A DNA stretch of 33,040 bases. Source: Elusimicrobiota bacterium (GTDB lineage Bacteria; CG03). The position numbers and the translations under genes are program-made. The notes beneath the pieces are model-generated. The model ran no database searches, was not told the DNA's origin, and saw only the letters and a program-made list of their open reading frames with translations. This document shows positions 12,334 through 15,758 of this stretch, piece after piece. The stretch's first letter is position 1. The number at the start of each line of letters is the position of its first letter. The stretch lies in assembly GCA_021161565.1 (NCBI GenBank), contig JAGHAK010000020.1:1-33040 (forward strand). Reading direction: 5' to 3'.

Positions 12334-13299
12334 ATGTCAAAAGTTGCTGTTGTTGCGGTCGGCGGTAATTCGCTGATAAAGGATAAAGAACATCAGGCGG
12401 TTCCCGACCAGTATATGGCTGCTGTCGAAACAATGAAGCACATCGCGACAATGATTCAGAGCGGCTGGGATGTTGTCGTTACCCATGGCAATGGTCCGCA
12501 GGTCGGTTTTATTCTTCTGAGAAGCGAAGCGGGGAAAAAAGTTTTCGGGCTTCACACTGTTCCGCTTGATTCCTGCGGCGCCGACACACAGGGAGCGATT
12601 GGATACAATTTCCAGCAGGCTCTTTCCAACGAATTCAGGCGCAGAGGGGTCAATAAATCGGTTGCCACTGTTGTCACGAGAGTTCTTGTTGACAAAGACG
12701 ATCCCGCATTTCAAAATCCGACAAAACCTATAGGGCCTTTTCTCGAAAAAGAAGAAGCGATGATGAGAAAGGAGAAAGAAGGTTGGAATGTGATGGAAGA
12801 CGCCGGTCGCGGCTGGCGCAGAGTCGTTCCCTCTCCGGACCCGAAGTCCATACTTGAAGAAAAAGCAATTGAAACTCTTGTCAGGGGAGGTTTTGTCGTT
12901 ATAGCGGTCGGCGGCGGCGGCATTCCCGTGATAGAGGTCAAGAAAAAAAATATCATAAAGGGCTGCGCAGCGGTGATTGACAAGGATTTTGCTTCATCGC
13001 TTCTCGCCTCCAACATAAATGCGGATTTGTTTTTGATATCCACGGCGGTCGAGAAAGTTTGTCTCAATTTCGGCTCGCCTGATGAGAAAAAAATTGATAA
13101 AATGACTCTTTCGGAAGCGAAGAAATATAAGGAAGAAGGGCATTTTAAAAAGGGCAGTATGCTTCCCAAGATTGAAGCGGTGATAAGGTTCCTTGAAAAA
13201 GGCGGTAAGCAGGCGCTTATTACCTGCCCGGAGAAGATAGAAGAAGCCCTTGCCGGAAAAACGGGAACCTGGATTGTTTCCGAAAATTTGCGGGCGTAG
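12334..13299 (+). CDS. arcC: Carbamate kinase
   Basis: VAVGGNS, THGNGPQVG, PTKPIGPF, GRGWRRVVPSP, GGGGIPV, AVIDKD, GSMLPK. Confidence 0.95.
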   Translation: MSKVAVVAVGGNSLIKDKEHQAVPDQYMAAVETMKHIATMIQSGWDVVVTHGNGPQVGFILLRSEAGKKVFGLHTVPLDSCGADTQGAIGYNFQQALSNEFRRRGVNKSVATVVTRVLVDKDDPAFQNPTKPIGPFLEKEEAMMRKEKEGWNVMEDAGRGWRRVVPSPDPKSILEEKAIETLVRGGFVVIAVGGGGIPVIEVKKKNIIKGCAAVIDKDFASSLLASNINADLFLISTAVEKVCLNFGSPDEKKIDKMTLSEAKKYKEEGHFKKGSMLPKIEAVIRFLEKGGKQALITCPEKIEEALAGKTGTWIVSENLRA

Positions 13300-13363
13300 T
13301 TCAGTTGGCTAGAACGCAACCTTGCCAAGGTTGAGGTCGTGGGTTCGAACCCCATCGCCCGCT
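13290..13363 (+). tRNA. tRNA-Gly(GCC), CCA not encoded
   Basis: Acceptor GCGGGCG/CGCCCGC, D-stem GTTC/GAAC, anticodon stem CAACC/GGTTG with loop TTGCCAA, T-loop TTCGAAC, discriminator T. Confidence 0.96.
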
Positions 13364-13589
13364 TTATTGCTTTGCAGGGTTCGAAGCCGACCCGAGCGCA
13401 TCCTTAACGGATGAAAAGCGAAGCGTCAGCGAGGGCGGCAGGCTTCGGCGGGTGCCGGTCGCGATGAATAAAGAGCGACGACCGAGCCCAAAGGGCGAGG
13501 GAAAGGCACGGGCGCGAGGCGGTGAGCGCCCCGGGTCCGAAGGACAGTGGCTACGACGGGGGAGAAGGAACCCCATCGCCCGCTTTATT
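13347..13589 (+). repeat. 22-bp direct repeat of the tRNA-Gly 3' end (13347-13368 and 13568-13589)
   Basis: GAACCCCATCGCCCGCTTTATT is present twice, identical, 221 bp apart. Confidence 0.92.
13377..13573 (+). ncRNA. Putative structured RNA or miniature tRNA-associated element of unknown family
   Basis: GC-rich, no credible ORF, closed by GGGTTC/GAACCC with at least five internal helices (see findings). Confidence 0.5.
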
Positions 13590-13590
13590 A

Positions 13591-13639
13591 AGCGAATAGA
13601 GAATAGCGAATAGAGGCGAGAGATTAGAGATTAGAGGTT
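13591..13639 (+). repeat. 7-nt-period purine-rich array
   Basis: AGCGAAT AGAGAAT AGCGAAT AGAGGCG AGAGATT AGAGATT AGAGGTT. Confidence 0.75.
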
Positions 13640-13659
13640 GGGAGAAAACTGGAGGTAAA

Positions 13660-14175
13660 ATGTTTCTTCAGGATGTGGTTTCGGAAAAGACGATAATTAC
13701 TGATTTGGAAGTCGCAGACAAAGAGGAAGTTTTGAAGAAGATGACAGAAGTTCTCGATTCCGCCGGCGTTCTTTCCGACAGGAATAAGTTTTATGATTCC
13801 GTTATAGAACGAGAAAGCCTCGAATCCACCGCAATCGGCGATGGTATCGCGATTCCGCACGCCAAAGGCGATTTTGTGAAAAAGATTTTTTGCTGTTTCG
13901 CCCGGCTAAAAAACGCCGTTGATTTTAATTCCCTCGACGGGAATCCCGTAAAAATGGTTTTTCTTGTCGCCGCGCCCGCGGATATGAACAGAGAATACAT
14001 ACAAATCGTCGCCAAAGCCGCGCGACTCTTGAAGAGCGGCGTTATGAGAGAACATCTTCACAACGCGGCAACGCCGAAAGATGTTCTCGCGATTTTCAGC
14101 GATTTCGATAAAATTCTCCAGCAGTCCCTTTCCGTCAAAACAAAGGAAGGCAGGGTGATTCACAAAGATATGTGA
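13660..14175 (+). CDS. PTS EIIA component (fructose/mannitol/Ntr family)
   Basis: RESLESTAIGDGIAIPHAK with phospho-acceptor His; VDFNSLDGNPVKMVFL. Confidence 0.9.
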   Translation: MFLQDVVSEKTIITDLEVADKEEVLKKMTEVLDSAGVLSDRNKFYDSVIERESLESTAIGDGIAIPHAKGDFVKKIFCCFARLKNAVDFNSLDGNPVKMVFLVAAPADMNREYIQIVAKAARLLKSGVMREHLHNAATPKDVLAIFSDFDKILQQSLSVKTKEGRVIHKDM

Positions 14176-15670: not shown

Positions 15671-15758
15671 GGCGGGATGCTGGAGTGGTTTATCAGGCCT
15701 GTCTCGAAAACAGGTGCCCTGCTTAGCGGGGCCGTAGGTTCGAATCCTACTCCCGCCG
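15671..15758 (+). tRNA. tRNA-Ser(CGA), CCA not encoded
   Basis: Acceptor GGCGGGA/TCCCGCC, anticodon stem CCTGT/ACAGG with CGA at 15705-15707, long variable arm, GTAGG-TTCGAAT-CCTAC, discriminator G. Confidence 0.95.

Follow-up and report, generated by a model that had tools for sequence, protein, structure and literature searches.

A repeated non-coding cassette with a target-matched antisense segment behind tRNA-Gly(GCC) and other tRNA genes in Elusimicrobiota

Results

Organization of the tRNA-Gly(GCC) locus

The stretch of DNA analysed here (33,040 nucleotides (nt) of contig JAGHAK010000020.1 from an Elusimicrobiota bacterium, hereafter the window) contains an intact tRNA-Gly(GCC) gene that is followed by an insert of 199 nt (13369–13567) lying between two exact copies of the tRNA 3' end. 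The insert and its closing tail copy form one member of a repeated, non-coding, tRNA-linked cassette family, in which a constant body is preceded by a short segment antisense to the tail of the host tRNA. The features of the locus are collected in Table 1; coordinates are positions in the window, and all parts of the locus are given on the plus strand. The start of the tRNA gene is overlapped by the 3' end of a kinase open reading frame (ORF), and a covariance model of the whole unit, described below, matches the window at 13374–13577 with 49.7 bits.

A first-pass annotation, made from the letters of the sequence, had described an exact 22-bp repeat of the tRNA-Gly 3' segment and a set of complementary segments in the intervening DNA. 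The repeat was recovered at 13347–13368 and 13568–13589, and all of the complementary segments lie where they had been placed. A chance origin of an exact 22-mer repeat within 1 kb is not expected, by reasoning and not by a computation. The statement that there is no integrase or credible ORF was also borne out: neither of the two ORFs of the insert (70 amino acids (aa) on the minus strand and 53 aa on the plus strand) has a Pfam family at E ≤ 0.01, and no integrase lies beside the element. No Rfam family other than tRNA was found in 13200–13700, even at E ≤ 10, and no promoter-like or terminator-like site was found on the plus strand of 12900–14000. Contigs assembled from public runs contain short pieces of several copies and one joint, which corresponds to another copy without the nested module of the window; a single RNA run has contigs at the locus, and these cover the tRNA and 13594–13634 and not the element.

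Table 1. Features of the tRNA-Gly(GCC) locus in the window, in order along the plus strand
Feature	Position	Strand	Evidence
Upstream ORF, 321 aa, amino-acid kinase family	12334–13299	+	Pfam AA_kinase, 80.7 bits
tRNA-Gly(GCC), intact, no encoded CCA	13290–13363	+	ARAGORN; Rfam tRNA, 68.8 bits
Tail copy 1, left direct repeat: tRNA positions 57–73 and 5 trailer bases	13347–13368	+	Repeat search, 100% identity
Spacer (filler), 8 nt, no similarity among the genome's five full copies	13369–13376	+	Copy comparison
Guide: antisense of the first 6 nt of the tail, GGGTTC; 5' strand of closing helix P1	13377–13382	+	Sequence
Body, 5' domain: invariant GAA, P2, tandem G.A/A.G, P2b, P3, P5 5' strand	13383–13450	+	RNAalifold; pair counts
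Invariant GAA	13383–13385	+	Part of body 5' domain
Helix P2	13386–13393 with 13433–13439	+	Compensatory variants in family genomes
Tandem G.A/A.G	13394–13395 with 13431–13432	+	
P2b	13396–13397 with 13429–13430	+	
Hairpin P3	13400–13412	+	
P5 5' strand, CTTC	13443–13446	+	
Nested 82-nt core module, in place of the short P4 hairpin of other members	13451–13532	+	Comparison with relatives
Outer stem of nested module	13452–13456 with 13505–13509	+	Encloses two inner hairpins
Terminal hairpin of nested module	13510–13515 with 13526–13531	+	
Extra hairpin (13535–13538 with 13542–13545) and linker	13533–13557	+	Common to this genome's copies only
Conserved purine 3' end of body; last 4 nt GAAG (13564–13567) are the P5 3' strand, stacked on P1	13558–13567	+	Covariation with 13443–13446
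Tail copy 2, right direct repeat; pairs with the guide over its first 6 nt	13568–13589	+	Repeat search
GA-rich low-complexity leader with the downstream gene's ribosome-binding site	13590–13659	+	Sequence
Downstream ORF, 171 aa, phosphotransferase system (PTS) EIIA-2, PtsN-like	13660–14175	+	Pfam PTS_EIIA_2, 121.8 bits

A family of repeats behind tRNA genes

The insert has nine matches in its own 1.52-Mb genome, five of them full-length (91–100% identity) and four partial. These correspond to eight distinct places, two contig ends being a single locus split by the assembler, and four copies lie no more than about 700 bases from a contig end. Seven of the eight places are located just 3' of a tRNA gene (Gly-GCC, Gly-CCC, Ala-GGC, Leu-CAA, Leu-GAG, Ser-TGA and Met-CAT), and the eighth has only the nested module. 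All full copies end in the tail copy of their own tRNA and start with the reverse complement of the 3' half of the T-arm of that same tRNA. The antisense segment accordingly varies between copies, the body being constant. Copies behind other tRNAs with matching 3'-end duplications, for which the first-pass annotation had proposed a search, were found as predicted.

A scan of metagenomes with a degenerate pattern gave at least 119 matches, about 40 of which are chance matches in high-GC coding DNA. A covariance model built from 45 units returned at least 103 matches in the loci examined, 94 of them distinct. Among the 103 matches listed, 75 have a same-strand tRNA ending at most 130 nt upstream, 11 follow another unit, 8 have too little upstream DNA and 9 are without an ARAGORN call, although several of these last show a tRNA 3' end by eye. 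The host tRNAs of the matches listed represent at least 28 anticodon species. The model finds the cassette in 7 of the 10 genomes of the bacterial family, to which an exact 14-nt word of the body is confined among the genomes of the phylum examined (5 of 26). An exact scan of public genome contigs with 15 nt gave 120 stretches, nearly all by chance; the only real one, as judged by BLAST and by eye, is a cassette in an Elusimicrobiota single-cell genome (L115; L, G and C numbers are our designations of loci, genomes and contigs), and this is the one match in a named public genome.

Several body families with identical ends could be recognized. At G000:C144:69–520 (L002) the tRNA-Gly(CCC) gene is followed by three different consecutive inserts, each closing in a tail copy, and the last of them has another body but an unchanged antisense segment and unchanged first four bases. 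A different dispersed repeat, not linked to tRNA genes, is present in a genome of the same phylum (G012; L015, L024, L030, L033 and L035), and has in common with the cassette only a small hairpin-plus-purine stretch of the 5' domain.

Anatomy of the unit and position of the junction

A unit consists, in this order, of a short variable spacer, the antisense segment (6–9 nt, rarely up to 20 nt) that copies the 3' half of the host T-arm, a conserved body of 80–105 nt, and a sense copy of the tRNA tail with 0–40 trailer bases, the minimal unit measuring 78–110 nt. The tail copy begins at T-loop position 57 and continues up to the tRNA's 3' terminus. It is exact over its first 14 nt in 50 of the 63 match–tRNA pairs, and the duplication has a median length of 20 nt (range 13–60) in 43 tRNA-proximal units. 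Over 45 non-redundant units the complementarity of the antisense segment to tail positions 1–7 is at least 0.78 and reaches background by position 13. Tail position 3, which is position 59 of the tRNA, is matched in 0.96 of these units as against 0.41 in shuffled pairings. The tRNA-Leu(CAG) gene carries an A at T-loop position 57, and in both of its units the guide ends in T and the tail copy begins with A, which places the junction between positions 56 and 57 whatever the bases found there. Remains of complete antisense copies are present in 6 of 45 spacers, a number not above that of the shuffles (mean 3.1, maximum 7); the remnants in two single spacers (L294 and L203) are striking.

Fold and covariation

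Folding of the single sequence was indecisive (plus strand, −94.6 kcal/mol, z = −1.70, with 9 of 200 shuffles as good; minus strand, z = −1.01), and the support for a structure therefore rests on repetition in the genome and on covariation over 94 distinct sequences. RNAalifold and pair counts support helix P1, helix P2 with a bulged A, the tandem G.A/A.G, two further pairs, P3, P5 and P4. P1 is formed by the antisense segment and the tail copy, and its pairs show double changes; it is the pairing of GGGTTC with GAACCC that had been noticed in the first-pass annotation, now backed by covariation. P3 and P4 are variable hairpins, the latter placed between the strands of P5, in which the internal CTTC pairs with the last four bases of the body. 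P5 abuts P1, so that the 3' strand is unbroken from these four bases into the tail and a three-way junction results. With P5 stacked on P1, the two body ends lie next to each other on a single continuous helix.

Standard pairs occupy 94.9% of the cells in the 94 distinct sequences as compared with 83.2% in shuffles, and changes on both sides are seen in 19 of the 22 model pairs, in line with the structured element that had been proposed. The covariation score is 0.315 against 0.111, a value reached by none of 500 shuffles, and controls with a slid register gave 0.036–0.068. The tetranucleotide of P5 and its partner switch together, with 12 complementary types (the common pair, in 43 sequences, and 11 other pairs), and family members found with the model show compensatory variants of P2. 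Outside the helices, GAA is conserved in 93 of the 94 sequences, as are the GGA-rich linkers.

Two of the helices listed earlier find no support in the covariation. In place of the CGAAGCC/GGCTTCG helix, the CTTC at 13443–13446 covaries with the GAAG at 13564–13567, whereas the 5' GAAG never varies across the sequences; and the alternative pairing GACCCG/CGGGTC conflicts with P2 (13386–13393 with 13433–13439), which has compensatory changes. The CATCC/GGATG hairpin does correspond to a variable stem, whose arms are complementary in the copies read and which lies, uncounted, outside the 22 model pairs. The hairpin GTCC-GAA-GGAC (13535–13545) is confined to the copies of this genome.

Gain, loss and arrays

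The downstream EIIA gene is syntenic in eight relatives, and the orthologous kinase/tRNA-Gly/EIIA locus is empty in six of them; empty-site alleles, which the first-pass annotation had proposed to look for, thus exist in relatives. One of the remaining relatives carries a minimal member of about 105 nt and the other carries other repeats. At tRNA-Leu(TAA), in two near-identical relatives, the DNA past the tRNA is wholly replaced by another tRNA-following repeat, and the borders of the insertion cannot be read.

The window holds a single unit. Arrays of two to three units were observed at G000:C144, L197, L199, L230, L271, L307 and L196. In L198, L215, L267 and L208 the more distant unit has been truncated or consists only of spacer and antisense segment. 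The model scores of array units fall with distance from the tRNA in three cases (L196, L198 and L307), rise in one (L271) and are about equal in four. This pattern fits repeated entry at the tRNA-proximal site.

The nested module and other inserts beside tRNA genes

The unit of the window owes its greater length to an 82-nt module in the position of P4 and to the extra hairpin after it. The module is missing from the minimal elements of relatives and metagenomes. Its fold, which comprises the GTGCC/GGCAC stem with two enclosed hairpins and the GGGCGC/GCGCCC hairpin of the first-pass annotation, is consistent over 15 distinct copies, with some double changes. Elsewhere the module stands by itself between ordinary genes, follows a duplicated 5' part of tRNA-Pro, or serves as a 5' leader that abuts tRNA-Arg. 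The leader is found in three relatives (L028, L029 and L014 in G008, G003 and G007; ~1500–1590), where the module lies 5' of a tRNA-Arg/Lys/Ala cluster, preceded by a promoter-like TTGCCG...TATAAT, and the acceptor 5' strand of tRNA-Arg doubles as the 3' arm of the module's last hairpin. The tRNA-Pro(TGG) duplicate, which extends up to the anticodon loop, is fused to the whole module or to part of it, immediately upstream of the genuine tRNA-Pro (L011:1400–1724 in G006:C55 and L332:1320–1484 in G008:C176).

Other arrangements at tRNA genes were seen. At L007:870–1196 (G000:C38:7514–7840, minus strand) a diverged 5' part of tRNA-Lys(TTT), up to the T-loop, stands upstream of the tRNA-Lys(TTT) gene. 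After it comes an ORF of 85 aa for a GIY-YIG nuclease (Pfam, 62.4 bits), which at its end overlaps the genuine tRNA-Lys. This is a second kind of insertion with a T-loop junction, in which the 5' side is duplicated; a weak second GIY-YIG ORF is located on C127. The tRNA-Ser(CGA) that carries the cassette of the single-cell genome at its 3' end is also preceded by a copy of its own first 18 nt, then an insert of about 100 nt, with a junction in the D-loop (L115:228–342). Another conserved sequence of at least 250 nt lies right after the CCA end of tRNA-Leu(TAA) or tRNA-Pro(TGG) in three relatives (L324 in G003:C4, L327 in G009:C183 and L332 in G008:C176), and is about 80% alike between G003 and G008.

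In the window itself, the leader of the EIIA gene (13590–13659) is built of GAATAG/GATTAG-like words. Similar GA-rich leaders lie 3' of the copies of the cassette on contigs C125, C169 and C22, and the relative G002 has one after its tRNA-Gly. The tRNA-Ser(CGA) gene at 15671–15758 has no copy of its last 14 nt within 1.5 kb downstream and thus carries no cassette.

Comparison with known tRNA-linked repeats

Escherichia coli contains tRNA-linked repeats (TLRs) that, according to PMC8144298, number 22 at ten loci, with one to five per locus, and finish with 18–19 bp in which they are identical to the upstream tRNA or rRNA gene at its 3' end. They have been known since 1978; the same source, of 2021, gives their function and origin as still unexplained, and reports that the three behind 5S rRNA (RrA, RrB and RrF) undergo transcription and processing and that they bind Hfq and CsrA in vitro. 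On the traits set out there, the cassette resembles these repeats (RtT of the tyrT operon, RF00391, and RrA/RrB/RrF) closely. It lies on the same strand directly behind a stable-RNA gene, extending from 13369 behind a tRNA that ends at 13363; its identity with the tRNA 3' end is exact over 22 nt (17 of the tRNA and 5 of the trailer); and it occurs once in the window and two to three times in arrays, within the range of one to five units per locus.

The likeness extends to the antisense segment. The tyrT locus of strain K-12 contains six copies of the last 16 nt of the tRNA; all three units behind tyrV start with a 10-nt antisense copy of the tail, of which 8 nt are retained in the unit that separates tyrT from tyrV. 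The Rfam RtT model, run on the E. coli tyrT locus as a positive control, gave four hits of 133–137 bits, and its consensus structure is closed by a stem that the antisense segment forms. In both cases the T-loop is where the tail copy starts, at position 58 in E. coli tyrT and at position 57 in the cassette. At the level of sequence no relation was detected: BLAST of the cassette against 5,426 E. coli genomes gave no match, its covariance model did not exceed 12 bits at the tyrT locus, where the match lay on the wrong strand, and RtT (RF00391) had no match in the window at the gathering score, in 13200–13700 at E ≤ 10 or in seven family loci at E ≤ 1. The inner fold differs as well, being a three-way junction with P5 in the cassette and an enclosed two-hairpin domain in RtT. 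Unlike the E. coli repeats, the cassette stands behind at least 28 tRNA species, in an Elusimicrobiota single-cell genome and many metagenomes, and its copy in the window hosts a nested second module. With the same architecture but no detectable homology of sequence or model, it is filed as of the tRNA-linked-repeat kind and not in the RtT family. The first-pass annotation had allowed for a match to an already described family; such a match exists in kind, the architecture equalling that of the E. coli TLR/RtT, and does not exist in sequence, no Rfam family being matched. No description of such families outside E. coli was found in the literature searched.

Other classes of mobile DNA share single traits with the cassette. 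Attachment-site (att) duplications of tyrosine-integrase elements and their integrase-less derivatives, the cis-mobilisable elements (CIMEs), show direct repeats of the 3' part of a tRNA gene that begin inside a loop, leave the tRNA intact and accrete in tandem. Direct repeats of the tRNA 3' end, an intact tRNA and tandem units are also seen here; in contrast, the cassette has no integrase, measures 100–220 nt as a unit, and combines one body at many tRNA species with a target-matched antisense segment. An att scar or CIME with one target and a matching integrase was rejected on the finding of at least 28 tRNA species and no integrase next to any copy. The suggestion of a minimal scar of an integrative element is likewise unsupported, since one body is present at at least 28 tRNA species, each time with an antisense segment matched to its target, and neither trait would be expected of a scar left by an integrase. 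Gene-less derivatives of IS200/IS605 (PATEs, and REPINs with RAYT) are folded, as is the cassette, and in IS608 a guide pairs with the cleavage site in a way that the pairing of the cassette's tetranucleotide with its last four bases resembles. Elements of that type, however, insert 3' of a short fixed word and produce no target duplication, whereas here a tail of 13–60 nt is duplicated. A miniature inverted-repeat transposable element (MITE), which would bear terminal inverted repeats of its own and duplicate a short target stretch of constant length, was rejected, the inverted repeat of the cassette being derived from the target and different at each tRNA, with a duplication that varies from 13 to 60 nt in length.

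Discussion

We lean, though only slightly, towards the reading that the cassette is inserted at T-loop 56/57 of tRNA genes, positioned by base pairing and moved by an enzyme acting in trans, and that it is probably co-transcribed with the tRNA. The cassette would enter the tRNA gene between positions 56 and 57, and with the tail duplicated on entry the tRNA would stay intact. Base pairing between the antisense segment and the tail may choose the site or hold it. Only loop positions 59 and 60 and the outer stem pairs would have to differ between targets, so that a point change could retarget the cassette. Repeated entry on the tRNA-proximal side would build the arrays, in which the older, distal units would decay. 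The placement of both body ends on one helix, beside a stem matched to the target, suggests a structure-guided strand transfer at 56/57 followed by resynthesis of the tail. The unit of the window lies within an operon with no detectable terminator and is thus probably transcribed with the tRNA, as are the RtT and RrB RNAs of E. coli. The description of the element as a tRNA-targeting non-autonomous unit, or a structured element, that was given in the first-pass annotation is largely right.

A number of observations weigh against this interpretation. Antisense copies of 12–20 nt in L224, L294 and L203, and of 15 nt with one or two mismatches in L275 and L282, could not be attained by point mutation and imply templated copying of the tail, which an insertion model leaves unexplained. 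Where the two tail copies differ (C10, C38 and L282), the antisense segment matches the left copy in both informative cases, which equally fits an integrative unit that brings its own tail. The near-identity of the copies within this genome could come from gene conversion among old units instead of recent jumps. The covariation counts come from an alignment that was fitted to the model, with part of P2 fixed by the search pattern, although the compensatory P2 variants of members found with the model speak against this second concern, and the balance of G.T and A.C pairs (25 against 24 overall, 19 against 10 without the outer pairs) leaves RNA and DNA undistinguished. As regards the enzyme, the reverse transcriptase family RVT_1 is found in none of the ten family genomes, and neither a Y1 transposase nor TnpB was found in this genome, which is 95% complete. 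Y1 genes are present in 8 of the 10 family genomes, two of which lack the cassette, yet this genome has none, and the four Y1 loci examined carry flanking repeats unrelated to the cassette. The four tyrosine recombinases of this genome do not adjoin any copy. Finally, no direct sign of movement or transcription was seen in the assembled contigs of public runs, in which neither a junction nor a circle was present and the element had no RNA coverage.

Several routes to such a unit were considered and rejected. Repair of a double-strand break from a donor unit would give the wrong orientation of the body relative to the tail. A simple insertion into the T-loop would put the 5' strand of the T-stem before the body and not the complement of loop positions 59–60. 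Retrotransposition, or a retroelement of the short-interspersed-element type or derived from a group II intron, is set aside by the RVT_1 result given above and by the lack of any match to an Rfam intron family in the window region and in seven family loci. Strand displacement with turn-around would account for the long palindromes of L294 and L203, and not for the 6–9-nt antisense segments of the genome's most similar copies.

Among the alternatives, the one that survives best, and which we regard as possible although clearly less probable, is that the unit is a functional or processed trailer RNA of the RtT/RrB type. It would be co-transcribed with the tRNA and closed by the antisense:tail stem, and released as a stable small RNA; the tail copy would offer the tRNA's 3'-end processing signal, and the conserved purine-rich single strands would bind protein. 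It would have spread by duplication of tRNA genes, unequal crossing-over at tail copies and gene conversion, without transposition. The Rfam consensus of RtT is closed by the same antisense:tail stem, and the strong conservation of unpaired purines (the GAA and the GGA-rich linkers), the tandem G.A pairs and the covarying junction are typical of a folded RNA. The location within an operon that has no detectable terminator points the same way, as does the fact that, within the bacterial family, the occupied tRNAs cluster among the Gly and Leu isoacceptors, and the processed repeats behind 5S rRNA that bind Hfq and CsrA provide a precedent, in which the repeated 3' end has been proposed as a recognition element for RNase E cleavage (PMC8144298). 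RNA function, however, has no need of an exact duplication that takes in the unpaired acceptor strand and as much as 40 nt of non-functional trailer, and many units stand behind an intrinsic-terminator-like hairpin with a T run. Presence and absence vary between close relatives and distal array units are truncated; the contigs of the RNA run cover the tRNA and the downstream leader and not the element; and the E. coli repeats linked to tRNAs are themselves still without known function according to that source.

We consider it unlikely that the cassette is a miniature integrative unit, similar to a CIME or satellite, that depends for its movement on a site-specific recombinase provided in trans. 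It would move as a small circle composed of tail, spacer, antisense segment and body, in which the duplex imitates a T-arm and recombines with the T-loop, the left tail copy being brought by the element and the right one being original. The order of parts is exactly that expected from such an integration, spacers often carry a terminator for the restored tRNA, entry appears to take place on the tRNA-proximal side, and tandem units share tail, spacer and antisense segment (L197, L230 and C144). Where the tails differ, the right copy looks older or foreign, with CCA only in the right copy at C10 and L282, and this genome does encode tyrosine recombinases. Against this stands the presence of one body family at at least 28 tRNA species, together with the similarity of the copies in this genome (91–96% alike at five different tRNAs, with unrelated spacers), since a non-cognate tRNA would be ruined by a unit that brought in a foreign tail. 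None of the copies has a recombinase linked to it, circles of 150–300 bp generally make poor substrates for known integrases, and no circle junction was seen in the assembled contigs, which could not have shown one.

A bolder form of base-pair-guided insertion, which we put forward only as a speculation and think rather doubtful, would make the cassette an insertion element of a new type, in which the antisense segment and the GAA read the T-loop and T-stem as single-stranded DNA. The internal tetranucleotide would hold the cassette's own 3' end, a trans-acting strand-transfer enzyme, possibly of the host or of the HUH type, would join the cassette at 56/57, and repair synthesis would re-create the tail. 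If this were true, changes at two guide positions would retarget the cassette to another tRNA, and one ancient mechanism would have produced both the cassette and the tRNA-linked repeats of E. coli.

That the tRNA has a giant T-loop intron or is a split or spare half, with tail copy 2 as the true 3' half after removal of 13364–13567, is extremely improbable: the guide and the tail copy do imitate a T-arm with a large insertion in its loop, but the upstream tRNA is complete and scores 68.8 bits without splicing, the antisense segment complements the 3' half, with loop positions 59–60 included, and does not reproduce the 5' strand of the T-stem, and no intron family matches in the window region or in seven family loci.

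The observation itself is confirmed and is far from chance. The kind of cassette is already known from the E. coli TLRs, where it is unexplained; in the window region and the seven family loci searched, the sequence of the family matches nothing in Rfam. Units of this family split assemblies at tRNA loci, go unannotated, and can mislead programs that call tRNAs, att sites or genomic islands. The same architecture is now seen far from E. coli, in another phylum and in numerous metagenomes from the environment. The family provides about 94 distinct sequences and clear rules: a junction at 56/57, an antisense segment that tracks the target, a tetranucleotide that holds the 3' end, and arrays behind the tRNA, several of them with distal units cut short. 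With these rules an old curiosity of E. coli becomes tractable to comparative genomics and simple biochemistry.

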